Positions 8,609 to 43,949 of a stretch of 53,799 nucleotides of DNA are shown here, piece by piece. The notes beneath the pieces are model-generated. The model did no database searches. It was not told the DNA's origin and saw only the letters and a program-made list of their open reading frames with translations. The DNA is taken from IMG/VR virus record IMGVR_UViG_3300047472_000142, positions 1-53,799 of that record. One strand, 5' to 3'. How positions within the stretch are numbered: position 1 is the first letter of the stretch; each line of letters starts with the position of its first letter. This stretch comes from a virus. The position numbers were made by a program, and so were the translations under genes.

Positions 8609-9475
8609 ATGAGCAAAAAGAAAGAACTTTCCCCAGAGTTAAAGGCTGAGTGCGACGCGGCGAAGGCGCTTTTCGTGTCGAAAAAAAACGCCTTGGGCCT
8701 CACTCAAGCAAGCCTCGCGGAAGCAGCTGATATTTCTGCTGCGGCTGTTGCGATGTACCTGAACGGCACTAACCCGCTGAATATAAAGTTTGCATCCGTG
8801 CTATCGCGACTTCTTGACGTGCCTATTGAAAAATTCAGCACGCGGCTAGCGAATGAAATCAGCAGTCTTGCGAGCTCAACGGAGCAAATTAGTTCTTCGT
8901 CGCAGAGCTCCTCAGCCGCCGACATAGTTCGTCAAATGCTTGCGAAGCAGGGAAAAGGGCTGTCCGCGGAAGCTCGAAGCCGCCTCCTCGCTGCCGCCGA
9001 AGAGCCAAGCAACGTGATCGTTGCGGACTTCTCCCGTCCTGGACAGGTCGGTGATGAAGTGTGGATTGCGCATTACGACGTTCGCGCAGCCATGGGTGGC
9101 GGCCAAGTTCCGCATGACTACCCCGAGATGCTCCAGGATGTGCGGATAAGCCCTAAGCATCTTCGAGAGATGGGAGTCGAGTTTACCGAATACTTTCATC
9201 TGAAGATCGTTACCGGCTGGGGCCAGTCGATGGCTCCGACGATCAAGCACCGCGACCCGTTGCTGGTGGACGTCAGCATTAGGGAGTTCGTTGGGGATGG
9301 GATCTACCTCTTTTCATGGGGCGACCATCTCTACATCAAGCGCCTGCAGATGCAGGGCTCTGATCATTTCAAGATGATCTCTGACAACACCAATCATCCG
9401 CCCGAGCCGATTCCACGCAATGAGACCTACATCCAGGCGCGGGTGCTACTGGTTTGGAACGCGCACTTGGTCTGA
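8609..9475 (+). CDS. cI: CI-type repressor (HTH_XRE plus S24 LexA-like peptidase)
   Basis: N-terminal LTQASLAEAADISAAAVAMYLNG HTH. The C-terminal domain has GQSMAPT (Ser) and YIKRL (Lys). Confidence 0.9.
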   Translation: MSKKKELSPELKAECDAAKALFVSKKNALGLTQASLAEAADISAAAVAMYLNGTNPLNIKFASVLSRLLDVPIEKFSTRLANEISSLASSTEQISSSSQSSSAADIVRQMLAKQGKGLSAEARSRLLAAAEEPSNVIVADFSRPGQVGDEVWIAHYDVRAAMGGGQVPHDYPEMLQDVRISPKHLREMGVEFTEYFHLKIVTGWGQSMAPTIKHRDPLLVDVSIREFVGDGIYLFSWGDHLYIKRLQMQGSDHFKMISDNTNHPPEPIPRNETYIQARVLLVWNAHLV

Positions 9476-17211: not shown

Positions 17212-17640
17212 ATGGCAGCCGCGCAGAAAGAACGATCGGCAAAGACTGCGGCGAGGCGAAAGACTCGCGGCGAGGAAGAGTTGCGAATGCATGCCATGGC
17301 CGGCACCCGGCAAGCGCTGGCTGAATTGATGGCCTGGCACGGCATCGAGGAACAGGGCGAGGCCATGACGCTGATGATTCATCATCTTCATGCGTTAGGG
17401 CCTCAAAAGTCCGCCCCGCTGCTTGCCCCGCCGCGACACGAAATCATAATTAGCGAAAACGTGTCGCGGAAACTGGACCAGTATCGATTCGGGTGCGAAC
17501 TCCGAGCTGTAAATGCATCGTCCGACGAAGATGAGGAAAGCGTTCAAGACGAATGCTATGCACCTATCGAATCACGAACCTCCAAAACAACTCTTCTCGC
17601 TTCGCGCTCGGACACAGTAAGTAGTTTCAGCAAATCATAA
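17212..17640 (+). CDS. hypothetical protein whose 3' end reads into an AT-rich island
   Basis: GAAGAGG lies 6 nt upstream of the ATG. The last 85 nt overlap the convergent gene 17556..18275. Confidence 0.5.
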   Translation: MAAAQKERSAKTAARRKTRGEEELRMHAMAGTRQALAELMAWHGIEEQGEAMTLMIHHLHALGPQKSAPLLAPPRHEIIISENVSRKLDQYRFGCELRAVNASSDEDEESVQDECYAPIESRTSKTTLLASRSDTVSSFSKS

Positions 17641-18275
17641 TCAACACCTTCCAGCTCGAACTCAACCCAGTCGAATACTCTGGTCGGCGCAAAACCCGGA
17701 TTAAATTTTTTCTGAATCTCTTTTATGGATGTTGAGCGAGAGAATACGACTCTTTCTTTTGAAATCGGCTGCCCGTTCATAGTATTTCCCTCGAACACAA
17801 CACTTTCACAGTTCTTGAATGTAAAGCCGGGGCCAATAGTTATGGTGTTTTCAACTGATTGCTTTCTCTGCTGAGTTCCTAGCCTGTCGTGCTTTCGGAA
17901 GTTTGTTGCGTTGCAGAATTTTACAAGCCAGTCGTCTCCGCACACGTGGGGCTGGATGCTTTCCACAATGGACAAAAGCCCTGGAGACTGCTTCGAAAGA
18001 CCAGGGAGATTCCTATTTAAACTTTGCAAAAATTCCTTCTCGTCTCTACCGTAAGGAAAATACACCTTTGTCTGTTTTTTAGAATAGGCCTGGTAAATTT
18101 CAACAGCGACGTACTCTAACGAGCTCCGAATGTGTTCAAGGGCTGACTTTGCTTCAACCCGTGCAACTTTAAGCACATCTTCGTCCGAGCGCGCTTCATC
18201 ATATTTACTTCGGATTAATTCGATTATCGATTTTGCCGAATCTAATAGCTCAGTTGCATCGTCAATTCTTTTCAT
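17556..18275 (-). CDS. orphan 239-aa protein on the opposite strand (moron, defence candidate)
   Basis: An AT-rich uninterrupted ORF antisense to the early-left operon. I recognised no motif. Confidence 0.6.
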   Translation of the reverse strand: MKRIDDATELLDSAKSIIELIRSKYDEARSDEDVLKVARVEAKSALEHIRSSLEYVAVEIYQAYSKKQTKVYFPYGRDEKEFLQSLNRNLPGLSKQSPGLLSIVESIQPHVCGDDWLVKFCNATNFRKHDRLGTQQRKQSVENTITIGPGFTFKNCESVVFEGNTMNGQPISKERVVFSRSTSIKEIQKKFNPGFAPTRVFDWVEFELEGVDYDLLKLLTVSEREARRVVLEVRDSIGA

Positions 18276-22867: not shown

Positions 22868-23287
22868 ATGTCTGCAGAACTGGCGCAGGCGCCCTCCCGG
22901 CCTCGGCGCGAAAGCATCCTTCCCCGTTTCATCCGTGCCGGTGCCGCTCCTATTTACTTGGGCATGTGCCGCGCCGAATTCGACAAAACCGTGCGCCCTT
23001 ATGTGAACGAGTTCCCCATCGGTGAGCGCGGTGTCGGCTTCGACCGTCAGGAGCTGGATGACTGGGCAACGGCGTATGTCGAGGCCAAAGCAATTGATAA
23101 AAAACGCGCCCCGGAGCAACAATTGCCCCGCAGCGAGCGCCTGAAAGGAGATAAATCATGGCGCGAAAATCGATCACAGGCCTCTCCGAGAGGAAAGGCA
23201 TCTGGCATATCGACAAGAAAATCAACGGAGAACGACTTTACGAAAGCACTGGAACTGGTGACCGGGAAGAAGCGGAACGCTACCTGA
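22868..23287 (+). CDS. xis: excisionase / AlpA-type HTH protein
   Basis: APIYLGMCRAEFDKTVRPYVNEFPIGERGVGFDRQELDDWA fits an excisionase-type winged helix. The frame stays open 130 nt into int. Confidence 0.6.
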   Translation: MSAELAQAPSRPRRESILPRFIRAGAAPIYLGMCRAEFDKTVRPYVNEFPIGERGVGFDRQELDDWATAYVEAKAIDKKRAPEQQLPRSERLKGDKSWRENRSQASPRGKASGISTRKSTENDFTKALELVTGKKRNAT

Positions 23288-24336
23288 TCTTCAGGCTGGA
23301 GCAGATCCGCCAGCAGAAGGTGTATGGCGTAAAGAAGGTCAGGATCTGGCGGGAGGCGGCGACTCGCTTCCTGCTGGAGTTCAAGGACCAGCCTTCAATC
23401 AAGTTATCGGCACACCACCTTTCTCAGCTGGACCCGTTCATTGGCGATATACCGCTCACCCACATTGATGACGAAGCCCTGGTGCCTTTCATCAAGGACA
23501 GGTTGGCGACTAAGAAGCTCGAGGATGGCAAGGTAAAAAAGGGTGTCAGCAACAGAACGGTGAACATCTCGATCGAGCGTGTGGTTCGGGTTTTGTCGTT
23601 GTGTGCCAGGAAGTGGCGAGACGATGAGCGCAGGCCGTGGCTGGATAGCGTGCCAATGCTCACGAAATTGGAAGAGAAGAAGTCGAGCCGCAAGCCGTAT
23701 CCGATGTCATGGCAGGAACAGTCGATTCTGTTTGCGGAATTGCCGGCTCACCTGCAAACGATGGCGCTGTTCAAGGTGAACACCGGCACCCGGGAGCAGG
23801 AGGTCTGCAAGTTGCGATGGGATTGGGAGATCTCGGTACCGGAGCTCGGCACCAGTGTTTTTCTGATACCTGCCGATTTTGGCGGGAGACATGAAAGGTC
23901 TGGGGTCAAGAACGGTGACGAGCGACTGGTCGTGCTCAACAGCGTGGCCAAGTCGATCATCGAGCAACAGCGAGGCCTGAGCAAGGAGTGGGTTTTCCCC
24001 TATAACGGCAGCGCGATGCACCGGATGAACGACTCAGCCTGGAAGAAGGCGCGGGTGAGAGCGGCGAAACTCTGGCAGGAGGAAAACCTTCGCCCCGCTC
24101 ACCCAGGTTATGCATCCATAAGGATCCACGACCTCAAACACACATTTGGCCGTCGGCTACGCGCAGCAGGCGTCACCGAGGAAGACCGAAAGGCACTTCT
24201 GGGCCACAAGAACGGCAGCATCACCAGTCACTACTCGGGCGCAGAGCTCGGGCATCTGATTGAAGCTGCAAACATGGTATCAGCAACCGATTCGCGTGGA
24301 CCGGTCCTGACAATCTTGAAGAGGAAGCAGGCGTGA
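23158..24336 (+). CDS. int: tyrosine integrase
   Basis: AAAGGAG upstream of the ATG. C-terminal HDLKHTFGRRLRAAGV and LLGHKNGSITSHYS supply the catalytic H/R/Y. Confidence 0.9.
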   Translation: MARKSITGLSERKGIWHIDKKINGERLYESTGTGDREEAERYLIFRLEQIRQQKVYGVKKVRIWREAATRFLLEFKDQPSIKLSAHHLSQLDPFIGDIPLTHIDDEALVPFIKDRLATKKLEDGKVKKGVSNRTVNISIERVVRVLSLCARKWRDDERRPWLDSVPMLTKLEEKKSSRKPYPMSWQEQSILFAELPAHLQTMALFKVNTGTREQEVCKLRWDWEISVPELGTSVFLIPADFGGRHERSGVKNGDERLVVLNSVAKSIIEQQRGLSKEWVFPYNGSAMHRMNDSAWKKARVRAAKLWQEENLRPAHPGYASIRIHDLKHTFGRRLRAAGVTEEDRKALLGHKNGSITSHYSGAELGHLIEAANMVSATDSRGPVLTILKRKQA

Positions 24337-33532: not shown

Positions 33533-33976
33533 CTACTCCGATACAGAGAGTGCTCCAAGATTGAATCCGGTGATCTGGCTAATGCGCCCTCTCCAGAGCA
33601 CGCCTTGGCCTGTGGGGATTACGCCATTTGGAAGGAAAAGTTTTGCTCCCCGGAGATGGATAAATGCTGTGTTGCTACCCTTTGGTGGCTCGTCAGAAAA
33701 ATAGCCTCCAAACAACCAGTCCAACATTTTTGCGGGAAATTCAGCGGACTCAGGAGGAAATCGCTCAAGGAATGCTCCTGAGTACAATTCCGCGTAAGAT
33801 TTTGCTGAGATCATCTCTCCGCTTATGATCCCTGCATTCGTCCATAGCGTGATCGGTTGAGTGAAGTTGTCTTCGTGATTCACCACGGTTACCAGGTGCT
33901 GCAGAACCCAATCGCGATCAACGTTGTCGCTCAACTCCCCAATAACATTTTTTTCTGTTTCGCTCATATCACGCAC
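33533..33976 (-). CDS. AT-rich moron protein, tentatively GvpU-like
   Basis: ITLWTNAGIISGEMISAKSY, AFIHLRGAKLFL and LWRGRISQITGFNLGALS recall the GvpU family from memory only. Confidence 0.4.
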   Translation of the reverse strand: MRDMSETEKNVIGELSDNVDRDWVLQHLVTVVNHEDNFTQPITLWTNAGIISGEMISAKSYAELYSGAFLERFPPESAEFPAKMLDWLFGGYFSDEPPKGSNTAFIHLRGAKLFLPNGVIPTGQGVLWRGRISQITGFNLGALSVSE

Positions 33977-34068: not shown

Positions 34069-37000
34069 TTAGGTTGCGTGCGAACTCAGCCCATACTTGG
34101 CTCGGTTTGCGTCGTGCAGCTCCCCTTCCTGGAAGATGTTCGCCACACAAATACGGATGACGTCGCCTTCAGTGAGTTGAGTTCGAGTGACCTGTCCGGC
34201 CTTGCTGGCATCTTCGACCAGCTGCACCGTCATCGGCCTTTCCGAGGCGGTGACGTTGCCGCCGCCTCCCAATGCAACCGAACTGCCGCCAGATAAAGAG
34301 CGAGCTGCTGACACGTTGCCATTGCGCAGCGCTTCAACCGTGGCCACACCGCCAAACTTGCGAATGTCGGATTGCGACCAGACGATCTCGCCCTTGTGGA
34401 CAGTGCCCGCCGGATCGTTCACTCCGCCTGCGCCGGTATAGCCACCACTCGAGAAGCCGATACCAGCCGCAGCCGAGGTCGCCACTGCGCCAGCCAGGGG
34501 ACCAGTGATAGACAAGGCTGTTGCCATTGCGCCGGGCGCAAGTAAAGGGCCAACGATAGGGATTGCTGCGGTAGACGCAAACGCCGCCAAGCCTGCCTGT
34601 AGAGAGGTGGCCGTGGCGTTGGCCGCCATCTGGCCTGCAGCGCTAGTTTGAGTGGTTTTTCCAACCAGCATCTGGACGCCTTTGTACACCAGCCACTGCG
34701 CCGCCATTTCCGTCAGCGCCCCGACAACCGCTTGGAGCATTCCCGCGGCCAGGTTTCCGAACGCATCGCCGACAGACTCGGCCCCGGTGATCATGTCGTA
34801 TAGCGCATCAGACGTGCTTGCCGTGATGCCGCCCAGAGCAGACGTTACCGCGCCCTCAGCCATGCCGGCCGAGTTCTGCGCCTGCTCGGCGAACTGATTC
34901 CATCCCGCGCTGACGCCGTTCATCCAGTTGGATTGGTATTCGTCAATCTGGGCATAGTAGTTCTGCTGCATGGCGAGGCGATTGTTCAGGCCGTTCTGAA
35001 TTACCGCGTTTTCCTTGTCGTACAGATCCTGGGTAATTCTTCCGGTGTTTCGCTGCTCCAGCAGATCGGCCGACTGCCTGGCGTAATCGCGCTGGATGGC
35101 CAGATCCTGCTTGAGCCGGTCTCGCGCCTCGCTGCCAAGCCCCAAGCCGGCAACTTGCGAGTCGATTCCATCCTGGGCGGTACCGAGCCGGGCATCTTGA
35201 TTGGCCTGGAAGGCGGCCAGCTTCTCGGCCTCCTCCTTGGATACCTTGCGTAGCTCGACCTCCTTCTCAAGCGCCGAGTTCTTCTTGAGCTGGGCGGTGA
35301 TCAGATCCTGGCTGGCCAGTAGCGCCTTTTGATCGGCGGTGAGCGTGCCTTTCGACTTGAGGTCGGCCAGCTGCTGCTCCCAGCGAATCAGGGCTTGAGC
35401 CTGGGCGCCGAGCTTTTCGTTCTTGGTGCCCTGGTCGCTGATCGCTGCGTTCTGCTGGACGAGCACGGCGTAAGCCTGGCGCGACGAGTCGAGCATTTTC
35501 ATGCCGGCGTCTTCGTTATAGACCTTCGGCTTAGCCTGAGACTTGTCGTACTTGGCCTGGATGTCGGCGACTACCCTGTCGATATCCGCTTGGGACTTTC
35601 CCGCCTCGACACCAAGCTTTCTGGCGTCGGCGATATCCTTCACGAGCCTGGCTTGGTCGGACAGTTCCTTTTTGGATAGCTCACTCCATTTCGAATCCGC
35701 CTGGATACGACCCTGATTACTTTTCGTCGCATCGCCCTCCACCTTGGCGTTTTGCTGGTTCACCCAAAGCCCGAGCTTCAGCATCGAAACGCGCTTCTCC
35801 AGTGCCGCCGTCGAGTCGTCATTATTTCCCTCGCCAAGGCCGAGAGCGGTATTCAGGCTACTTAAGCCATTAGAAACCGCGCCAGCAATTCCGCCCTCTT
35901 TGCGAGTCTTGAGGATTCGCTCGATGATCTCGATCTGCTTGTCGTCATCAGGAAATAGCTCGCCGCGCACCCTGCTATAAGAATTGCTGATCGCCGTACC
36001 AATATCTCTCCAATCGCGCTCAATATCGGACAAGGATTCGCGGTAGCGCTTGAATCTGGCCTGCGCGTTTTGGTTAAGACTTTCGCTCAGGACGTCCAAT
36101 GCTTCCTGCCTTTTGCCTTGCTCGTCGAGGCCTCGGATAACCTCGTATTGGGCGCTGGTGAGTAGACCGTATTGGGCGCTGATCTTCTCTGCCGACTTGG
36201 TTGCGTTGTCTCCCATGCTGCCGAGGGCAGTTGCCACTTCAGCAGTGCTCTTACCTGTGAACTGGCCGATTGCTGATGCCGCTTCAGCCAGGTTCTTGAA
36301 TTGGATCTGGCTCAGGCCTACGCTCGCAGCCAGGGCCGTCACCGCCGCCTTAGAATCCGCCAGACTGCCGGTCAGGGCTGCTGCATTCTTGGATATCGAG
36401 CCCAGTGAGTCGGCCGTCTGACCGGAACTCGCCGAACCAGAGAACAGCGCCTTATTGAAAGCGCTAACTTCCTTTTCAGCATCGACATAAACGGCGGCCA
36501 ATGTGCCAAGTCCTGCCGCTGCGACGGTAAAAGGGTTGACCAAGCCAAGAATGTACCCACCCAGGGCCTTTGCCGCCGGACCTGCGCCGCCGAACATATC
36601 TTTCAACTGCCCGCCTTGCTGCAGGAATACCGTCAGCGGGGCCTGGCCTCCCTGGAGCGAAACAGCGATGTCAGTGAATTGCGCCGGAACGCCGCGCAGG
36701 GCCGCCGCCGTCTGTTTCGCGGTGTTGCCGGTTCGGGTCAGCGAGTCATCGAAGCTGGTAAGACCCTTGCGAGCCGTATCGATCTTCGACTTGTATTCGT
36801 CATACGTGGCAGTATCGAGCTTTCCAGCCTTGCGATGCTTAACCAGGTCCTGCTCTTGCTTGTCAAGTTCGCCCAGGCGGCGCACCACCGGGTCAATCTG
36901 CCCCAGCAGCCGCTCAAGCTCGTCGGCCTCATCCTCGATGGACTTGGTAGCCTTTTCGGCGCCCTTGCCCATCTTTTCCATGCCGGCGCCGGCCTTGTTC

Positions 37001-37122
37001 AGTGCCGGCTGAATGCTCAGGCCCGCATCTTCCAGCGCCTCAAGCGCCTTGCGCGTGTCCGCCGCCTTTGCTTCGGCATCTCGGCTGTCCAGCTCAATGA
37101 CGAGGCGGGATGTTTGGGCCAT
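34069..37122 (-). CDS. tape measure protein
   Basis: 1017 aa, Ala/Gln-rich and helical, with Gly-rich hydrophobic C-terminal segments. Confidence 0.9.
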   Translation of the reverse strand: MAQTSRLVIELDSRDAEAKAADTRKALEALEDAGLSIQPALNKAGAGMEKMGKGAEKATKSIEDEADELERLLGQIDPVVRRLGELDKQEQDLVKHRKAGKLDTATYDEYKSKIDTARKGLTSFDDSLTRTGNTAKQTAAALRGVPAQFTDIAVSLQGGQAPLTVFLQQGGQLKDMFGGAGPAAKALGGYILGLVNPFTVAAAGLGTLAAVYVDAEKEVSAFNKALFSGSASSGQTADSLGSISKNAAALTGSLADSKAAVTALAASVGLSQIQFKNLAEAASAIGQFTGKSTAEVATALGSMGDNATKSAEKISAQYGLLTSAQYEVIRGLDEQGKRQEALDVLSESLNQNAQARFKRYRESLSDIERDWRDIGTAISNSYSRVRGELFPDDDKQIEIIERILKTRKEGGIAGAVSNGLSSLNTALGLGEGNNDDSTAALEKRVSMLKLGLWVNQQNAKVEGDATKSNQGRIQADSKWSELSKKELSDQARLVKDIADARKLGVEAGKSQADIDRVVADIQAKYDKSQAKPKVYNEDAGMKMLDSSRQAYAVLVQQNAAISDQGTKNEKLGAQAQALIRWEQQLADLKSKGTLTADQKALLASQDLITAQLKKNSALEKEVELRKVSKEEAEKLAAFQANQDARLGTAQDGIDSQVAGLGLGSEARDRLKQDLAIQRDYARQSADLLEQRNTGRITQDLYDKENAVIQNGLNNRLAMQQNYYAQIDEYQSNWMNGVSAGWNQFAEQAQNSAGMAEGAVTSALGGITASTSDALYDMITGAESVGDAFGNLAAGMLQAVVGALTEMAAQWLVYKGVQMLVGKTTQTSAAGQMAANATATSLQAGLAAFASTAAIPIVGPLLAPGAMATALSITGPLAGAVATSAAAGIGFSSGGYTGAGGVNDPAGTVHKGEIVWSQSDIRKFGGVATVEALRNGNVSAARSLSGGSSVALGGGGNVTASERPMTVQLVEDASKAGQVTRTQLTEGDVIRICVANIFQEGELHDANRAKYGLSSHAT

Positions 37123-37140
37123 TGCTTTTCTCCGGGTAAT

Positions 37141-37161
37141 AAAAAACCCGCCGAAGCGGGT
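37141..37161 (-). terminator. intrinsic terminator immediately upstream of the tape measure gene
   Basis: ACCCGC-cgaa-GCGGGT with a U-tract on the minus strand, after the stop at 37178. Confidence 0.7.
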
Positions 37162-37177
37162 CTGTTTGAGTTGGCAT

Positions 37178-37510
37178 TCAGCCTAGGAGCTTAGCCTTCT
37201 CGCTCTCGAATTCATGATCACTGATGGCGCCCTTTTCTTTTAGGGTGACCAATCGTTCCAGCTGGTCATATTTATCATCGGTCCGTTTTGACACGGTAGG
37301 TATTGAGGCGGTCTTATGGATGGCAGATGCGGACCAAATCAGTGCGGCCAACCATCCAATAAACGTCCAGCCCAAGAAAATATTGAGTAACCCGATACTG
37401 TTTCCGTTTGGATGATTGCGCTTTGAAGCAATAAACGTCGGCAAGAAATATGCAACGAACGCCACAACCAGCAACACAAAGCTCGCGATTGGACTGCTAC
37501 CGTCTGACAT
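37178..37510 (-). CDS. superinfection-immunity-family membrane protein with a SHOCT tail
   Basis: YFLPTFIASKRNHPNGNSIGLLNIFLGWTFIGWLAALIW followed by LERLVTLKEKGAISDHEFESEKAKLL. Confidence 0.7.
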   Translation of the reverse strand: MSDGSSPIASFVLLVVAFVAYFLPTFIASKRNHPNGNSIGLLNIFLGWTFIGWLAALIWSASAIHKTASIPTVSKRTDDKYDQLERLVTLKEKGAISDHEFESEKAKLLG

Positions 37511-37601
37511 TTGGAATCTCCCTGAAGTAATGGCAGCAATCTACCACCATCCACAGGAAGCGCCAAAACCCCGCCAGTGTGGGGTTGTGGATTAATGATT
37601 G

Positions 37602-38483
37602 CTATGCGGTGCAGCTTCCAACCTTGGATTGCGATCGCAGTCGCAGGTTATTCATCGCAGCGATAGCGAATTCGAACAAACCGTCAGTGGTGATCGGAAT
37701 GTCACCGGGGATATGCGCGATCCCCTTCAGGAAATCGTTCTGCGAAAGCACATAGGCATCATCTGGAACCTGAATGATCTGCTGCTCACCTTTTTGGTTG
37801 AAGCTCAGCAGGTATCGGCCATCTTTGCTCACATCGAAGTATGTGTCAGCTTGCTTCGGTAAATACTGCCCTTCAAGCGAGTAAGCGGCGACGAAGTTCC
37901 GAGCTGCGTCGAGCTGCTCCGCCGGTATATCCTGTGCCGATACGACACTGAATGCTTTGTGCACTTGTGACCAGATGTGCATTCGAGCGCTTCGTTTGGT
38001 GCGTTTATCCAGACGGCTGATCTTCCCGTCGATTACAGCTGATAGGCAGTGGAAACCGTCAGATCCGATAGTGGTGCCGATCAGAGTGTAACTCTTTGGA
38101 GCCAACAGCTCAGTCGGTGCATGTGCCTTGTTCCAGTGAGCCCAAAGGACGTCGTCGCATTCGTTCTGATAAGCAATGACGCCTTCACGAAGCTCTTCGC
38201 GAACCTTGCTGGCATGAATGGACATTAGCCAGCCAGGTAGCTTGCGCAGTGGTAGGCACGACATCTCATAGCTTTTTCCATCCGCGCCAGTTGTGGTCAT
38301 CATGACCATGACTGAATGGAATCGACCTGCCTGCAATTTACGGAACTGGGTCTTCCAATCCAGCCCCATGCCTTCAACGACAGGTTTCATCGGAACGAAT
38401 GGCTCTTCACCCTTTTCGACCAGCAAAAGTTTGGCTGACCGGAACGGGATGACATTGGATGTTGCTGTGCTATTATTCGCCAT
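37602..38483 (-). CDS. ant: antirepressor with a P22_AR_N-type N-terminal domain
   Basis: Internal start MANNSTAT. KPVVEGMGLDWKTQFRKL, CLPLRKLPGWLMSI and YQNECDDVLWAHW. Confidence 0.75.
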   Translation of the reverse strand: MANNSTATSNVIPFRSAKLLLVEKGEEPFVPMKPVVEGMGLDWKTQFRKLQAGRFHSVMVMMTTTGADGKSYEMSCLPLRKLPGWLMSIHASKVREELREGVIAYQNECDDVLWAHWNKAHAPTELLAPKSYTLIGTTIGSDGFHCLSAVIDGKISRLDKRTKRSARMHIWSQVHKAFSVVSAQDIPAEQLDAARNFVAAYSLEGQYLPKQADTYFDVSKDGRYLLSFNQKGEQQIIQVPDDAYVLSQNDFLKGIAHIPGDIPITTDGLFEFAIAAMNNLRLRSQSKVGSCTA

Positions 38484-38552
38484 GACGATTTCTTCCTGGT
38501 AGTTGATCTCGTTACCCGAAACCCCTTGCGCTCGAACGCTCGGGGTTTTTTT
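38484..38552 (+). ncRNA. candidate sar-like antisense RNA across the arc-ant junction
   Basis: Plus-strand ATGACA (38449..38454), 16 nt, TATTAT (38471..38476). A plus-only terminator has CCCC..GCG/CGC..GGGG (38522..38545) followed by 7 T residues. Confidence 0.35.
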
Positions 38553-38709
38553 ATGCCTGCTTGATTTGCTGTTCATCCTTCTGTTTTGCCTCCTCAATCA
38601 ACCCTAGAACAACTGCCTGCATACTGTGAAAGCTAGCTTTTGCCTTTCTATCGACCCAGTCTTTGTGCTCGTCGGGCAAACGAAGCTTGAATTGCGCTTT
38701 TGGTCTCAA
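38551..38709 (-). CDS. Arc-type RHH repressor
   Basis: TTG start with GGAGGA 7 nt upstream, giving (M)RPKAQFKLRLPDEHKDWVDRKAKASFHSMQAVV. The ORF-track start at 38745 would run through the operators. Confidence 0.65.
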   Translation of the reverse strand: MRPKAQFKLRLPDEHKDWVDRKAKASFHSMQAVVLGLIEEAKQKDEQQIKQA

Positions 38710-38725
38710 TGCTAAATCCTCCAAT

Positions 38726-38790
38726 GGACCCAATGGGTGCATCACAAGTAGAACCCATTGGGTCCGTTTACGTCAAGACCCATTTGGTCC
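38726..38790. promoter_or_regulatory. three palindromic operators between the divergent RHH genes
   Basis: GGACCCAATGGGT (38726..38738), ACCCATTGGGTCC (38753..38765) and GACCCATTTGGTCC (38777..38790). TTTACG-17-CATTAT places a start site at about the ATG at 38802. Confidence 0.65.
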
Positions 38791-38801
38791 ATTATTTCCA
38801 A

Positions 38802-39329
38802 ATGAATAGAACAGACCCCCAATTCAAGCTACGCATCCCTGCCGAACTCAAAGCTCAGCTTGAGCTAGGGTCGGAACAGAACATGCGTTCGCTTTCAAAT
38901 GAGATACTCAAGCGACTCGAAGTGACCCTAATGCTCGATGAGCTTAAGCCGCCGTTGCGAGGTGGTTTTGCGGGGGCTCCAGAGGTTTTGTCGGTTCTCT
39001 TGACTGAGAACGAAAACCTGAGGCGAGAGAGAGACCATTTCGAGAAGATAATTTCCGAGTCGTTTTCGGAGATCATTGAGGACCGGCTGGGAAAGGTCGC
39101 TACGGAAGCCAGGGCTGCTCAGTATCAAACCGAAACCATTCAGTATCTGTGCGCCGTTTTGGCTTTGCAGAGTGCACACCCTGATGTTATTTCTGACCTT
39201 CAGCGTCGGGAGATTTTAAAAGTCGTTCAACACATTACTGGAAGTGACAGCCAAGACCCAGGTGAAATTATGGGTCTGCTCACCAATCGCCTGATCGGCC
39301 GAACGTTTGGAGAGGTATTAGGGATTTAA
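38802..39329 (+). CDS. Mnt-like RHH repressor with a long C-terminal extension
   Basis: Start MNRTDPQFKLRIPAELKAQLELGSEQNMRSLSNEILKRLE, an Arc/Mnt fold pattern. No SD, so possibly leaderless. Confidence 0.6.
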   Translation: MNRTDPQFKLRIPAELKAQLELGSEQNMRSLSNEILKRLEVTLMLDELKPPLRGGFAGAPEVLSVLLTENENLRRERDHFEKIISESFSEIIEDRLGKVATEARAAQYQTETIQYLCAVLALQSAHPDVISDLQRREILKVVQHITGSDSQDPGEIMGLLTNRLIGRTFGEVLGI

Positions 39330-39433
39330 CCATCTATAGCCCACTTCATGCCTAGACAAATCGTGACCTGAGTTTCGAGCCCAGCCCAACTGGCCAAGGC
39401 TTTTTACTTTTCCAAACATAAGTAGGAGCACCA

Positions 39434-39763
39434 ATGCACAAGGTTTTGTTGGCGGTTAGAGTCACTCAAAAAGGTGACTGGCTCGGTTATTACAGCTATC
39501 ACCTCACCCTTCCATTCGCTCCTTTCCCTGGCCTTCGCTTCGAACAAGGTGTCAGCTGTAAGCTCTGGGAAACGATGACCGGTTCGGAGCTAGACCCAGT
39601 CGTGGAGCGAGTCATCTACGATCTAGACGAAGAACGGTTTGTCTGCCTTTTCAATGTGGACATCCCACTGCGAGCCTCGCTTTGGACTGATGATGTAGAC
39701 CTTTCACCGGGATCAGTCAGTGCCATCGGCCAGTACTTCCGCCACATGCCTATCCACAAGTAA
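39434..39763 (+). CDS. hypothetical protein (mnt-operon cargo)
   Basis: 109 aa with AGGAG upstream of the ATG. Confidence 0.6.
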   Translation: MHKVLLAVRVTQKGDWLGYYSYHLTLPFAPFPGLRFEQGVSCKLWETMTGSELDPVVERVIYDLDEERFVCLFNVDIPLRASLWTDDVDLSPGSVSAIGQYFRHMPIHK

Positions 39764-39809
39764 CTACAAAGCCCTCCCGGGCTTTAACTTGCTCTAGAAG
39801 GTCTGCCAA

Positions 39810-40088
39810 ATGCCGCATGACTTCACAAAGTTAAGGCAGGCACTCCAAGATCCAGCCGACGGGCCCTACGCGCTCATCAAGATGCGGGAGCTACTCATTG
39901 AAGCTTTACGGGGCTGGCCAGGAGAAAACTACCAGACCGCCGATTACCTTCTTCCTTGGGGTCAGCTCATTACCATACGCGCTCGCAGCGCTATCGAAGG
40001 ACTTCTGGATACTATCAGTGGCGGCCATGTGAGCGCCGAAACCAATATCCTGAAACTTGCCAAGATGTGCGAACTGCTTAAGGGCTGA
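39810..40088 (+). CDS. hypothetical protein (mnt-operon cargo)
   Basis: 92 aa, co-oriented, with the end of the operon at the hairpin 40101..40124. Confidence 0.55.
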   Translation: MPHDFTKLRQALQDPADGPYALIKMRELLIEALRGWPGENYQTADYLLPWGQLITIRARSAIEGLLDTISGGHVSAETNILKLAKMCELLKG

Positions 40089-40100
40089 TGCTCCAGATGC

Positions 40101-40124
40101 AAAAAGCCCAGCGGGTGGCCGGGC
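40101..40124 (-). terminator. intrinsic terminator after the zeta-like operon
   Basis: GCCCAGC-5 nt-GCCGGGC with a U-tract on the minus strand. Confidence 0.55.
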
Positions 40125-40145
40125 TCTGAGCGAACGGAAAGGGCG

Positions 40146-40340
40146 TTATTTGCATTTCGAAATGCTGTATTCGCCGGATTTTACTGAGCGTATGACATCT
40201 TTCTGCTCATTGATGGCCACGCTAGCGGCCATGTGATAGACCGCTCGCCTTTCCTCCACGGACCCGTGGCGGAAAAACTCAGACATCGTCGACGACCCGT
40301 AAACTTTCGTCGAAGCGTCTGCTACCTTTTCGCCTTTCAT
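40146..40340 (-). CDS. small protein coupled to the zeta-like kinase
   Basis: 64 aa. Its start overlaps the kinase stop (ATGA). Confidence 0.55.
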   Translation of the reverse strand: MKGEKVADASTKVYGSSTMSEFFRHGSVEERRAVYHMAASVAINEQKDVIRSVKSGEYSISKCK

Positions 40341-41068
40341 TGGGATACTCCGTTCAAAATTCCTTCAAGCTCAACCTGATCATAGGGGTGGTTGACGAAC
40401 CCGTCAATTTCTGTAGCTGAAAGGTCAATACCGATATCCTCGTTTCCGCCATCATTGTCCTTGATGATCACATCTACCTGCAATGCAGCTTCAAACTCTC
40501 GCTTGAGCGCGCAAACAGACGCCTTTGCAGCATAGAACTGTCTGACAAATTCTGCGCAGGGAATGTTCCTGCCATCCTTTTTTTCCCTCGCCAACACAAA
40601 TTCCCATGCGAGCTCAGGCCTCTGGTAGACGTAGATAATTTGGGCCGACCGGTTGTCTTTATCAAGGGCGCGCGAGATGTTTCGTCGCGCCACATCTAGA
40701 TTCGCAAGTGTCCCATCCAGCAGAAACGACTGACGCTGCTGGTAGACTAGGTCAAGGGTGCGCTCAACAAAAGTGGTCACCCCGCGCTGGAAAAGGCTGG
40801 AATTTCGACCCGTGTATTCGGGGAAATAGTCTCGGAAGTCGTCCGGATCGATTCTCAACGCATTCGATCCACCAGCTTGCATCATATGAATAAATGCCCT
40901 AGAAACCTCGGTCTTCCCTGCACCTGGGGAACCCGCCATGAACACGGAAACGGGGTATTCATCACTTGGATACGTTTCGAGGCACGCCAATTCTCGGGCA
41001 ATGCGAGTGCGGTTTTGCTTTGCAAACGCTACGGCGCGATCGGAAACGTCCTGCTCTTCCTGGGTCAT
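40337..41068 (-). CDS. zeta-toxin-family P-loop kinase
   Basis: Start MTQEEQDV with AAGGATGAG upstream. Walker A MAGSPGAGKT. Length and layout fit the zeta/AAA_33 type. Confidence 0.65.
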   Translation of the reverse strand: MTQEEQDVSDRAVAFAKQNRTRIARELACLETYPSDEYPVSVFMAGSPGAGKTEVSRAFIHMMQAGGSNALRIDPDDFRDYFPEYTGRNSSLFQRGVTTFVERTLDLVYQQRQSFLLDGTLANLDVARRNISRALDKDNRSAQIIYVYQRPELAWEFVLAREKKDGRNIPCAEFVRQFYAAKASVCALKREFEAALQVDVIIKDNDGGNEDIGIDLSATEIDGFVNHPYDQVELEGILNGVSQ

Positions 41069-41288
41069 AGGCTCATCCTTCACAAGAGCCAAAACTCTAG
41101 CACCTAACGCCCTTGCCAAGCATCGGTCTAGGAGGGCCATTTGTTACAGTCAGCCAAGTCGCGCCTGTACGAATCCCCAGTAACTCGCATCGCGCCCAAC
41201 GTAGTAGCGTTATGCAGGCACCGATGATCCGATCGAAATGTACTGCATGGTTACGATGCAGATGATCATCAAATGAATTTTCAGGGAG

Positions 41289-41771
41289 ATGTTTGTGAGC
41301 GCTTATACCATACCCGATGGAGCTAAATTCGTTCAAATCAGGTTTTTACGAAAAGACGGCGAGGTTTACGATCTGCCGCCTGGAAGGCCAGTTGTCATCG
41401 CGGCTCTTAGATACGACCCCGAGCATGGAACGGGGCCAAGAAATATTACCGGACTTAAGTCGACATACGCTCTGATCGACACAGGGGCTGACCATAATTA
41501 TGCAACACCAGAATTGATTGCTGAGGCTGGATGTCCTCAAATCGGCACTGCAAGGTTGCGAAACGCCAGTGGTTGGACGGAGTCAACTCAACACTTGGCA
41601 CACATATTTCTACCGGAAACAGGAAATCAGTACGAGACCGATGTATTTTCGTCCAGCCTCGTAGATGACGACGGCCACGGCGAGAGCCTTATCATTGGCG
41701 TTCTGGTTATGAAAACTGGAAGGCTAGTCATGGATTTCCAGAGCAATATCTACCGTCTTTACGTCGCATAA
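41289..41771 (+). CDS. retropepsin-like aspartic protease
   Basis: ALIDTGADHN contains the D-T-G-A motif, and LIIGVLVM resembles the second conserved block. The GTG at 41295 has better RBS spacing. Confidence 0.55.
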   Translation: MFVSAYTIPDGAKFVQIRFLRKDGEVYDLPPGRPVVIAALRYDPEHGTGPRNITGLKSTYALIDTGADHNYATPELIAEAGCPQIGTARLRNASGWTESTQHLAHIFLPETGNQYETDVFSSSLVDDDGHGESLIIGVLVMKTGRLVMDFQSNIYRLYVA

Positions 41772-41779
41772 CTCAGCCC

Positions 41780-41962
41780 TTACTGAGCTTTCATTTGTGA
41801 CAAATACGGTTTAGCACACGCGGGTACAGCTTTATTCAGGCCTCCCAGCGAGTTCATGCTCTCTTGGGAGGTCACGCTCTTGAGAGAGTCAATTCGAATT
41901 CCCTTATCGATATCCATAGTCGCACCTCGGCTAAGTTCTACATTATGTTGGCTTTCATTCAT
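41780..41962 (-). CDS. small hypothetical protein coupled to the end of T
   Basis: 60 aa. ATGAATGA overlap with the stop of the T frame. Confidence 0.5.
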   Translation of the reverse strand: MNESQHNVELSRGATMDIDKGIRIDSLKSVTSQESMNSLGGLNKAVPACAKPYLSQMKAQ

Positions 41963-42685
41963 CGTATTCCCCCGCCAAACTCACCGCATCCAACGCGAAC
42001 ATCACCTCGTCGACCTCATCCCGCGTAAACGGCGACGGATGCGACTCAAGCCAATCCGATATTTCCCTAGCTGACAGCGGCAGCGGGAAAACACCGGCCA
42101 TCGTTGCGATGAACCGGCGCCCGCGGGTGATGTTGCGGAAAGTGCTCAGCAGGTAAGCTGTGATCGAGTCCGTTTCCGGCTCATCAGGAATTGCCATGCC
42201 AAGCCGCTGGTAAATCAGCCGGCGCTTTTCTGTTTCGCCGCTCCACTCTTTTTCCCACTCGAAGCGGGCAACGACTTTCCCACGGTCTCAGCCAGGGCCT
42301 TTTGCGCCTCGATGGCGGCATTGCCCGATTCGCGCAGTACGAACAGGAAGAATTCGATGTTGGCATCGAGCATCTGCTCGGCAGATCCGGCGCTGTACGC
42401 CAGCGGGTTACCGTCCGCATCCTGCACGCCGGCCCAGTCCTTGACGATGAACTGACCCAGCAGCCTGCACTGGGTCTGATGCTCGGTCGTCTCGCCGTCG
42501 ATCACGCCGACGACACCGACACCGAACTGGGCGTCAGCATTGCGCAGCTTGCGGCGCTCTCGCTCAAGGGCGACCGCGTATTCCGGGTTATCAATTCGTG
42601 CCAGCAACACTTTGGTGTCGGTGTCATAGTCGACCCACTTGGTTTCCGAGGTGTTCTGGTCTTTTTTGGTCAGTCGCAAAGCCAT
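41955..42685 (-). CDS. tail assembly chaperone GT fusion, produced by -1 frameshifting
   Basis: The T frame (41955..42197 and upstream) is the -1 frame of G. It stays open from the slippery site, predicting a product of about 243 aa. Confidence 0.7.
42215..42685 (-). CDS. tail assembly chaperone G
   Basis: 156 aa, lying between the major tail gene and the T frame. Confidence 0.75.
   Translation of the reverse strand: MALRLTKKDQNTSETKWVDYDTDTKVLLARIDNPEYAVALERERRKLRNADAQFGVGVVGVIDGETTEHQTQCRLLGQFIVKDWAGVQDADGNPLAYSAGSAEQMLDANIEFFLFVLRESGNAAIEAQKALAETVGKSLPASSGKKSGAAKQKSAG
42275..42281 (-). other. -1 programmed frameshift slippery heptamer G GGA AAG
   Basis: The zero-frame codons GTG GGA AAG place the lambda G/GT heptamer in the correct X XXY YYZ register. 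Confidence 0.7.
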
Positions 42686-42763
42686 GGTTGTTCCTCACGC
42701 CACGCCGAAAAGGACCGCCCCGGATGGCGTTGGTGCCGGGGCAGTCAAAGGGGTGATTCGGTG

Positions 42764-43924
42764 TTACGAAACGGTGATGGTCGACGTGCTGAGCTTCGTG
42801 CCGTCGTACTTGCTGGTCGCGGTGATGGTCGCCGAGCCGGATGCCACGCCAGTAACCAGGCCGGTCGAGCTGACCGTCGCCTTGCTTGGGGCGCTGCTGG
42901 TCCAGTTGACACCTTGCGGAGCGCCGGCCGGGGCCACGGTCGCGGTCAGCTGCTGAGTTCCAGCGACAGCAATAGTCGCGGTACCAGGTGCCACGGTGAC
43001 GCTGGTCGGGGCCACGTATGGCGCGCGGGTGATAGTCGGCGACTGTTTGGCCACGGTGTAATTCAGCGTCACCTCGATCAGGTCGCGCTTACCGCCGCTC
43101 GGCAGCTCGCCGTCGACTTCCACCGCAGGGAAACTGAAGGTGTACTTGTTGCCCACGCTGTCGGTGATCGGGAACTCGACCGCAACCGTTTTCCGGGTGA
43201 AGGTGTTTTTCCAGATGCCCCAGGCCGTAGCCGACCAGGCCAGCGTGATGGTGCCGGTAATGGCCGCCTCGGTGGCGATCTGCGCCCCCGGGCCCATCTT
43301 GTCGGTGCCGATGCAGCGCTGAGCCAGCAGGCCGTTATCCAAGCTGACTGTCATGGCCGAGACGCAGGCCTGGCCTTCCAGCGACACGCCGTCGACCAGG
43401 AGGGTGCCGACGTTGCCGTTGCTCATGAACGGGGTGGAAGTCGGGGCCGCCGGCGCGAGTACGATCGGCGCGTTGCTGTCGGTGTAGTCCAGACAGGCGG
43501 TGCCGAAGGTCACAGTGACCTTGCCGTCACTCGGGATGTCCAGGGCGAACGTCGGGATGTGCACACCCTTGAACAGGGAGTAAACACCAACGTCCATGTA
43601 GTTCTTGGCGATGCTGAAGGTGTGGCGCACGTCGCCCACGGTCAGCACGTTGCTGGTCCAGTTGCCGTAGAAAGCGGCCTCCAGCAGCTTGTCGAAGCTG
43701 CCATAGGACAGTTCGGCGGTCAGGTCGCCGCCGATGTCGGTACTGGTCACGACCGAGCCCTGGCTGATGCGCGAGTCGGTGATCTCGTCGCTGGTCGCCG
43801 TGTTGACGGTCGGAGTCATGGCATTGCCGGTCAGCCGTAGCGTGTCCCAGGTGCCGGAGCCGGGAGTAACGCCGGGCGTCACCTCGGGGATGATGTAACT
43901 TGTGACTTTGGCGCCGCTCGACAT
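42764..43924 (-). CDS. major tail tube protein with a C-terminal Ig-like (Big_2-type) domain
   Basis: Start MSSGAKV with GGAGA upstream. C-terminus VTVAPGTATIAVAGTQQLTATVAPAGAPQGVNWTSS..ATITATS. Confidence 0.8.
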   Translation of the reverse strand: MSSGAKVTSYIIPEVTPGVTPGSGTWDTLRLTGNAMTPTVNTATSDEITDSRISQGSVVTSTDIGGDLTAELSYGSFDKLLEAAFYGNWTSNVLTVGDVRHTFSIAKNYMDVGVYSLFKGVHIPTFALDIPSDGKVTVTFGTACLDYTDSNAPIVLAPAAPTSTPFMSNGNVGTLLVDGVSLEGQACVSAMTVSLDNGLLAQRCIGTDKMGPGAQIATEAAITGTITLAWSATAWGIWKNTFTRKTVAVEFPITDSVGNKYTFSFPAVEVDGELPSGGKRDLIEVTLNYTVAKQSPTITRAPYVAPTSVTVAPGTATIAVAGTQQLTATVAPAGAPQGVNWTSSAPSKATVSSTGLVTGVASGSATITATSKYDGTKLSTSTITVS

Positions 43925-43949
43925 AGTGAGTCTCCAGATTGCGGACATG

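Follow-up and report, generated by a model that had tools for sequence, protein, structure and literature searches.

The founding "moron", gene 15 of phage HK97, codes for a superinfection exclusion protein and is found at the junction of the tail chaperone and tape measure genes (Juhala et al. 2000; Cumby et al. 2012; reviewed in PMC3594210). In phage P22, the genes mnt, arc, sar, ant and sieA form the "ant moron", a stretch of the late operon that is highly variable among relatives and has an effect on read-through to the tailspike gene (PMC2629481). Here we describe a 4.8-kb island at positions 37141-41962 of a viral contig, the IMG/VR record IMGVR_UViG_3300047472_000142, which was analyzed over its full length of 53,799 nt (hereafter, the window). 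The island lies between the tail chaperone G/T genes and the gene of the tape measure protein (TMP), and it is an unusually large case of the moron type already described, with HK97 gene 15 and the P22 ant moron as precedents. We consider it very probable that one lineage of temperate Pseudomonas siphophages has a moron (cargo) hotspot at the G/T-TMP junction, and that at least five separately acquired and separately transcribed modules make up the island as a mosaic.

These modules would be a terminal cassette with an Imm gene, a secondary immunity switch of the immI type, a zeta-family kinase gene with its partner orf64, an antisense gene for a retropepsin-fold protein, and the doubtful gene orf60. 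All of them turn up elsewhere apart from the others, in many cases in another slot. The island is therefore a patchwork of mostly recognisable modules, and not one new multi-gene system. The expression patterns and all protein functions given below are predictions from sequence.

With HK97 gene 15 the island shares the junction, a GC content unlike that of the flanks, and absence from related phages. HK97 gp15 is a small inner-membrane protein that excludes at the DNA-entry step, and the island likewise has membrane-protein cargo, for which exclusion is predicted. The differences are in content: HK97 has a single gene for a YebO-like single-pass protein, whereas the island has an unrelated protein with Imm_superinfect and SHOCT domains and two hydrophobic segments, and nine more open reading frames (ORFs) upstream of it. 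Also unlike HK97 gene 15, the cassette combines a leader and a terminator that are kept throughout the lineage with an ORF that is exchanged.

The slot between the tail chaperone and tape measure genes

The tail operon of the window is on the minus strand. Its genes upstream of the island encode a major tail protein with a Big_2 domain (42764-43948, minus strand) and the tail assembly chaperone G (42215..42685, minus strand; phrog_313, E-value 1.4e-30), which forms the upstream border of the slot together with the T frame of the G/GT chaperone (41955..42197, minus strand; phrog_1189, 3.7e-26), whose stop codon is the slot edge. T is in the -1 frame relative to G. Ahead of the G stop codon is a GGGAAAAAG slippery-like run, from which the -1 frame continues open into T, so that a G/GT frameshift product is plausible. 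The downstream border is the TMP gene (34069..37122, minus strand; phrog_24, 1.7e-178).

The GC content of the island is 0.506, against 0.596 in the TMP gene and 0.625 in the stretch from G to the major tail gene. In 4.8-kb sliding windows, the minimum over the whole contig (0.5058, at 37137) coincides with the island, and windows clear of it never fall below 0.537. The GC content at third codon positions (GC3) is 0.46-0.62 in the island ORFs, versus 0.68-0.81 in the tail genes. A first-pass annotation of this DNA, made from the letters alone, had described a low-GC accessory island with genes on both strands between GT and TMP, and this description was borne out. Its count of eleven genes came down to ten protein ORFs, spread over both strands, among them orf60, for which the JGI call is only 45 aa and which has no homolog beyond two near-identical assemblies (L057 and L058; the loci compared are cited here by L numbers). 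For four genes the likely start codon lies inside the maximal ORF, at 41068 for zeta, 38483 for ant, 38706 (TTG) for arc and 38802 for the mnt-like gene, and the proteins are shorter accordingly.

We compared 35 related loci in all, 32 of them picked by a chaperone G 58-93% identical to that of the window (a range of 77-93% was also recorded), and measured the gap from T to TMP in each of the 32. The slot is empty in six relatives (L003, L014-16, L018, L028), with a gap of 65-75 nt, and the flanking tail proteins of these six are 84-98% identical to those of the window. It is filled in about 29 others. Single-gene cargo of four unrelated families was found in many of them: a 161-aa lipoprotein in five loci, a 190-aa lipoprotein in eight, a 121-aa secreted protein in two, and a 164-aa lipoprotein in one (lipobox and signal-peptide calls on the cargo of relatives were read straight from the translations). 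Six loci (L012, L013, L021-23, L027) and one truncated contig carry Imm-SHOCT alone. L019 and L024 carry a small ORF, an antisense retropepsin gene, further ORFs and Imm (2.0-2.3 kb), and L002 carries mnt/arc/ant, a KilA-N protein and a lipoprotein (3.3 kb). The window has the biggest load among the loci compared. Homology of the core DNA with relatives breaks off at the two slot borders, at 37160-37165 and at 41949-42037.

Cultured phages are more distant, with a chaperone identity of at most 47%. Two phages of P. syringae, Cruim01 and Aurca01, with a chaperone about 46% identical, have four hypothetical genes in the same slot. A megablast search of positions 36000-43000 against 50,697 phage records gave a sole match, of 360 nt, in ant. 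Because the content of the slot varies among relatives, Cruim01 and Aurca01 included, the T-TMP junction is a cargo hotspot both old and heavily used. The first-pass annotation had proposed an insertion hotspot, to be checked by alignment with related phages and prophages, and the relatives with GT and TMP essentially contiguous, next to those with varied cargo, agree with that proposal. As is typical of morons, the cargo is present in some close relatives and absent from others at the same junction, and its base composition is unlike that of the surroundings. Candidate signals for a promoter and terminators of its own, with which a moron is expressed from the repressed prophage, are the terminator-like hairpins at 37144-37163 (before TMP) and at 40101-40127 and a conserved extended -10-like leader before the terminal cassette; other promoters were not found by the scan described below.

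Could the island genes serve conserved tail-assembly or structural functions, or could the arrangement be an assembly chimera? In favour, their site is within the tail operon, and several run in its direction. Against this, structural families gave no match for any island protein, and relatives do not carry these genes as conserved core tail genes, which the first-pass annotation had named as one outcome that would speak against its proposal: six have nothing in the slot, despite their closely similar flanks, and the others have varied cargo. The arrangement is not a chimera, since an identical sequence was assembled independently from another sample (L058, 100% identity over 6.5 kb, with the full gene set). 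We give this reading practically no credence; the empty slots and the independent assembly refute it.

The first-pass annotation also saw in the island the strongest candidate of the window for a novel multi-gene system. Candidates of the exclusion type (Imm-SHOCT) and of the toxin type (zeta) are indeed carried, as it had said, and a single co-adapted system with exclusion, toxin and regulator parts working together could account for the complete gene set in two more assemblies (L058 at 100% identity and L057 at 98.6%), and for the ant modules that again neighbour zeta-orf64 in L039 and in L040-42. The two assemblies are essentially the same phage, however, and L057 already has one ORF swapped. 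The combination was found in no other relative among the 35 loci, while each module stands alone elsewhere, and the parts have different histories. Within the island, the modules are parted by terminators and by convergent or divergent orientations, and the main parts have well-understood stand-alone precedents. A single new system is thus very unlikely, and the mosaic reading is followed below, module by module.

A second hotspot in the tail operon was observed in other Pseudomonas prophages, between K (NlpC/JAB) and I (L034 6473-8689, L051 1367-5372, L059 5149-8186). It carries the same cargo families: retropepsin, zeta-orf64, and an imm-ant-arc-mnt-orf109 set.

Terminal cassette and immI-like module

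The exchangeable ORF of the terminal cassette encodes the 110-aa Imm-SHOCT superinfection immunity membrane protein (37178..37510, minus strand). It matches Pfam Imm_superinfect (PF14373; 1.5e-17, 63.7 bits versus a cut-off of 27.9), SHOCT (9e-6) and phrog_1039, "immunity to superinfection" (8e-24). Searches against Pfam and PHROGs confirmed this identity as well as those of Ant, the Mnt-like and Arc-like proteins and zeta, all of which had been proposed from the letters. Like T4 Imm (PF14373), the protein is small and membrane-embedded, with the Pfam domain well above its cut-off; it differs from T4 Imm in the C-terminal SHOCT fusion, in being prophage-borne, and in its place in a tail-operon cassette. 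This inner-membrane protein most likely blocks DNA entry by superinfecting phages.

The ORF is headed by a leader at 37518..37548 (minus strand), a palindrome round a TGnTAnATT extended -10-like element followed by an AGGGAG Shine-Dalgarno (SD) sequence. In its general 31-nt form, [G/A]TGATGCTAWATTG-N5-CATCAC-N2-5-AGGGAG with the ATG 6-9 nt on, the leader has a single copy in the window and in each of 23 further related loci (in slots of L004-L032), never outside the slot, and directly upstream of the last cargo ORF. It heads five unrelated cargo families in these loci, and a sixth in the cultured phage Cruim01 (L055 6594-6622). We regard it as a putative moron promoter with an operator. The palindrome may instead act as an RNA hairpin: its changes among loci are G-U-compatible transitions and one symmetric C-G to G-C change, which fit a hairpin and an operator alike. 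A conserved leader of another type, CAnATGATGCGGCAGGGCCGCrGGAGA, was observed directly after the T stop codon and before a small co-directional ORF in L019 (5800-5840), L024 (10725-10765) and Cruim01 (L055 5738-5768).

At the other end of the cassette is a Rho-independent terminator (37137..37163, minus strand), with an 8-pair stem followed by a T-run, 19 nt upstream of the TMP start. A hairpin with a T-run about 20 nt before the TMP start was present in all 28 loci (of 31) that yielded this region, and loci with an empty slot are among them. The stems vary in sequence with pairing kept (CCCGC/GCGGG, CCGGGC/GCCCGG, CCGGC/GCCGG). Since it is kept in every recovered relative, empty slots included, this terminator is the downstream border of the slot and does not belong to the island. 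Two terminators had been ascribed to the island itself; the ascription stands for the one at 40101-40127, which marks the edge of zeta-orf64 in seven other loci, and fails for the pre-TMP one. Late tail transcription must read through the whole island and through the pre-TMP terminator, in support of the read-through that had been deduced from the position of this terminator before the TMP start.

L057 gives a direct view of a cassette exchange with near-codon precision. From the major tail gene on, its identity to the window is 98.6%, up to a point 7 nt ahead of the Imm ATG; there an unrelated 116-aa secreted protein takes the place of Imm, and homology picks up again in the terminator (L057 12824-13215 versus window 37148-37517). 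It is conceivable that the conserved leader and terminator form a fixed "expression socket" for unrelated ORFs, which would be swapped in and out almost to the codon.

Upstream of the terminal cassette, the island has a module similar to immI of P22. The anti-repressor Ant (37602..38483, minus strand; 293 aa from the ATG at 38483) matches Pfam P22_AR_N (4.3e-44) and phrog_524, "anti-repressor Ant" (2.5e-59). It follows, in the same operon, a 51-aa Arc-like ribbon-helix-helix repressor (38551..38706, minus strand), the first gene of the arc-ant operon, which starts with TTG and has a GGAGGA SD sequence 7 nt before this codon. Divergent from arc-ant is a gene for a 175-aa Mnt-like ribbon-helix-helix repressor (38802..39329, plus strand; the JGI call is also 175 aa), whose N-terminal part matches Pfam Arc above the cut-off (1.2e-7, 31.9 bits). 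The control region between arc and mnt is 95 bp long. Operators had been noted in the island from the letters, and the operator-like elements in this region are real repeats: three copies of a 16-nt near-palindrome of the ACCCATTGGGTCC type, at 38728..38793, with an exact spacing of 25 bp. The nearest cultured homolog of the module is in the P22-like Pseudomonas phage UFJF_PfDIW6, in which a pair of "Arc family" genes flanks ant. Its ant is 80% identical to that of the island over 360 nt of the 5' part, its annotated Arc is 42% identical to the Arc-like protein, and its "Arc family" protein is 44% identical to the N-terminus of the Mnt-like protein.

We also predicted a sar-like antisense RNA at 38449..38553 (plus strand), with a promoter at 38449-38476 and a transcript of roughly 70 nt (about 38483-38553) complementary to the SD sequence and start codon of ant. 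The promoter, ATGACA-16-TATTAT with an upstream TG, has 10/12 matches, and the terminator at 38531-38544 is followed by T7 on the plus strand; the predicted RNA folds into two hairpins (z = -2.8). The -35 and extended -10 elements, the complement of the ant start and the terminator stem are kept in five other ant modules (L039, L040, L048, L051, L052), although their Ant proteins have identities down to 30%, and three stem pairs are compensatory, with both sides changed and pairing kept.

Two further genes follow mnt. orf109 (39434..39763, plus strand) has 25 homologs, the named ones all from Pseudomonas, and because it lies beside ant, in the same relative orientation, in eight of nine viral contigs, we assign it to the immI-like module as a conserved companion of mnt and ant. 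Its AlphaFold2 (AF2) model (pLDDT 84) had no fold match in PDB or BFVD. orf92 (39810..40088, plus strand) is the last gene of the mnt-side operon. It had no family matches, and a pattern scan of the viral contigs found no relative; by tblastn, a single homolog, 48% identical, was detected downstream of orf109 in L046. The module also occurs in other surroundings: L051 has an Imm-x-x-ant-arc|mnt-orf109 set in its K-I tail slot. In L040 (4636-6920) we observed the arc-sar-like leader kept, followed by a different 103-aa gene, an Ant/Rha-like gene and zeta-orf64, in an early/immunity region.

The likeness to P22 immI extends to a P22_AR_N Ant, an Arc of about 51 aa upstream in the same operon, a divergent ribbon-helix-helix repressor of the Mnt type, and an exclusion gene alongside, and it would take in the operator-like array between the two repressor genes and the predicted antisense RNA of about 70 nt over the ant ribosome-binding site. 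In both phages the module is in the late operon upstream of a tail gene, requires read-through, and lies in a region variable among relatives. Unlike P22, the window is from a siphophage, and the site is the G/T-TMP junction and not upstream of the tailspike gene. The Mnt-like protein has 175 aa versus 83 aa, with an unrelated C-terminal part, and its gene is followed by orf109 and orf92; the exclusion protein is of the Imm type and not SieA; and the antisense RNA has no Rfam family match.

Several results count against a switch of this kind, or against separate transcription of the modules. The Arc-like protein scores 18.3 bits with Pfam Arc, just under the cut-off of 20.4, and the Mnt-like protein is twice as long as its P22 counterpart. 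An Rfam search of the island (E <= 5) gave only sub-threshold matches driven by the terminator hairpin and no sar match, and the antisense RNA stays a prediction for this reason. A consensus scan gave three promoter-like sites versus 3.9 expected by chance, and it found no promoters for arc-ant, mnt, zeta or the retropepsin gene; for arc-ant/mnt it offers no more than a weak candidate 7 nt ahead of the mnt ATG.

By the logic of P22, the Mnt-like repressor would be made in a lysogen together with orf109 and orf92 from the divergent operon, and it would bind the three-operator array and keep the arc-ant promoter off. After infection or induction Ant would be made and would inactivate a CI-type repressor, for which the product of a gene at 8609-9475 (plus strand; HTH_3 and Peptidase_S24 domains) is a plausible target. 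Arc would then shut the operon down, and the antisense RNA over the ant ribosome-binding site would limit translation.

The zeta-orf64 pair and the retropepsin-fold gene

The gene of the zeta-toxin-family kinase (40337..41140, minus strand; Pfam Zeta_toxin, 5.5e-53) probably starts at 41068. This start gives a protein of 243 aa and matches the relatives and the JGI call, the maximal ORF being 267 aa. In an alignment with PezT, the Walker A motif (GAGKT), the catalytic Asp of IDPDDFR and the substrate-binding motif (DGT) are all kept. The 90%-identity cluster of the protein has 51 members, of which the named ones come from several Pseudomonas species and are annotated as "zeta toxin family protein".

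The start codon of orf64 (40146..40340, minus strand) overlaps the stop codon of zeta (ATGA). This candidate antitoxin is an obligate small partner of zeta, located immediately downstream of it in all seven viral contigs with the pair and in L057-L060. Its family is very narrow: an exhaustive HMMER search among 1.8 billion representatives gave seven matches, of which four were small proteins, and some matches were of low complexity. A terminator-like hairpin (40101..40127, minus strand; -20 kcal/mol), with a 10-bp stem taking in the start of a five-U run, ends the unit between convergent genes. DNA homology of the module begins at this hairpin in seven other loci (at 40093-40101), which indicates that zeta-orf64 carries its own terminator.

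The pair was found, with 81-97% amino-acid identity, in seven viral contigs outside the T-TMP slot. In L038 and L059 it is in the K-I tail slot, and in L040, for which the surrounding genes were annotated, repressor and replication genes adjoin it. An ORF upstream of zeta (41097-41336) was considered as an antitoxin gene and rejected, as it is not conserved in other zeta loci. We also observed a promoter-like site, TTGACG-17-TATGAT, at 40379-40407 (minus strand), inside the 3' end of zeta and invariant in eight zeta loci, and a conserved SD sequence upstream of orf64. The site could drive orf64 alone; the evidence is weak, because the site is also coding sequence.

Zeta-orf64 most likely acts as a toxin-antitoxin or abortive-infection cassette, whose kinase may act on UDP-GlcNAc or on another nucleotide. 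With epsilon/zeta and PezA/PezT it shares the Zeta_toxin domain, the Walker A motif, the catalytic Asp and the substrate-binding Thr motif, a small translationally coupled partner, and residence on a mobile element. Unlike in those systems, no upstream ORF is conserved. Toxin-first order is known from AvrRxo1/Arc1, a relative of zeta systems. Some evidence is unfavourable to an antitoxin role of orf64 and to a defence role of the pair: orf64 has no family match and no recognisable antitoxin fold (no helix-turn-helix antitoxin domain, and no similarity to epsilon or PezA), it lies downstream of the toxin gene and not upstream as epsilon and PezA do, and a PADLOC search (PADLOC-DB v2) of the ten island proteins gave nothing significant, with marginal P-loop matches of zeta (E 0.002 and 0.007). 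In the literature we found nothing specific on zeta toxins in phage defence. Given the toxin-first order and a partner that matches nothing known, we file zeta-orf64 as working like a zeta-type toxin-antitoxin or abortive-infection cassette and not as a member of PezAT.

Next to the pair, and divergent from it, a gene antisense to the tail operon encodes a 160-aa retropepsin-fold protein (41289..41771, plus strand), a mobile single-gene moron. We identified 23 homologs, the named ones all from Pseudomonas or Azotobacter and none with a Pfam domain. Across 16 sequences, the D-T/S-G-A motif keeps its Asp, Gly and Ala without exception, with Thr at the second position in 15 and Ser in the other; near the C-terminus, a G-x-L-x-M-D motif is conserved too. 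The AF2 model (pLDDT 84.7) had as its top Foldseek matches the protease of feline immunodeficiency virus and APRc of Rickettsia (probability 1.0, TM about 0.65). No Pfam, NCBIfam or PHROG match at E <= 0.01 and no PDB sequence match were obtained. The retropepsin-like identity first suggested from the letters thus holds for the motif and the predicted fold, and finds no backing in Pfam; we regard it as supported, at the level of a fold model and motif comparison. The protein resembles Rickettsia APRc (PDB 5c9f) in the predicted fold and in the invariant residues of the motif. It differs from bacterial retropepsins such as APRc in matching no Pfam or NCBIfam model, in about 55 extra N-terminal residues, and in being a soluble-looking protein of 160 aa encoded antisense in tail operons.

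Homologs of this gene also occur as lone antisense genes in three other tail-operon slots (L033, L034, L037), located in P. monteilii between the tail completion and tail tube genes, in another Pseudomonas genome between K and I, and in Azotobacter. A partnership with zeta-orf64 is nonetheless suggested by its neighbours, and a point against independent modules is that the gene stands beside zeta-orf64 in four of nine distinct zeta lineages (that of the window, L038/L059, L044 and L060), in two different tail-operon slots and divergent from the pair. One could then propose that retropepsin, zeta and orf64 form a hitherto undescribed three-component prophage defence or abortive-infection unit that travels between the T-TMP and K-I slots, in which the protease might control the balance of toxin and antitoxin, or how the kinase toxin is released or activated, and to which the other island genes would be unrelated cargo; the obligate pairing of orf64 with zeta in every locus and the apparent limitation of both the retropepsin and orf64 families to Pseudomonadaceae would suit such a unit. 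Against it, five zeta-orf64 loci (L039-L043) have no retropepsin gene, five retropepsin lineages (L019, L024, L033, L034, L037) have no zeta, the two genes are divergently transcribed, and PADLOC returned no match. In L038, moreover, zeta is 97% identical to the copy of the window and the adjoining retropepsin only 54%, which points to separate histories of the two genes. We consider the three-component unit improbable and keep the two as separate modules of the mosaic, which may be functionally linked within those four lineages.

The last cargo ORF before T is orf60 (41780..41962, minus strand), which we treat as a doubtful gene. Its ATG overlaps the T stop codon, its GC3 is 0.46, and the 45-aa JGI call spans 41780-41917. 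It had no family match and, besides the near-identical L057/L058, no homolog in any compared locus.

Further probable cargo of the window and meaning of the island

Outside the island, we observed an integrase-like ORF at 23158-24336 (plus strand), assigned from its N-terminal sequence only. With this ORF and the CI-type repressor present, the contig looks like a complete temperate phage. TMP and the next minor tail gene, separated by only about 40-90 nt in most relatives, enclose in the window a low-GC ORF of 147 aa (33533-33976, minus strand; phrog_14356, GC3 0.51), which is probably another moron. A 239-aa ORF at 17556-18275 (minus strand), in a GC trough of 0.46-0.49 and with a GC3 of 0.45, runs antisense to the plus-strand early genes around it and probably represents more accessory cargo.

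The least-understood parts of the island are zeta-orf64, the retropepsin family, orf109 and the conserved cassette leader. Current concepts are unchanged by these results, whose value lies in annotation and in the choice of candidates for defence screens. The slot and its relatives offer a natural catalogue of prophage cargo for exclusion or lysogenic conversion, with several lipoproteins, Imm-SHOCT, zeta-orf64, the retropepsin-fold family and orf109, and further cassettes can be sought with the conserved leader and terminator as practical markers. A P22-style anti-repressor module, with a likely antisense RNA of the sar type, can sit in the tail operon of a siphophage, and the temperate siphophages of Pseudomonas likewise use the position of the founding moron heavily, as a deep hotspot for cargo.

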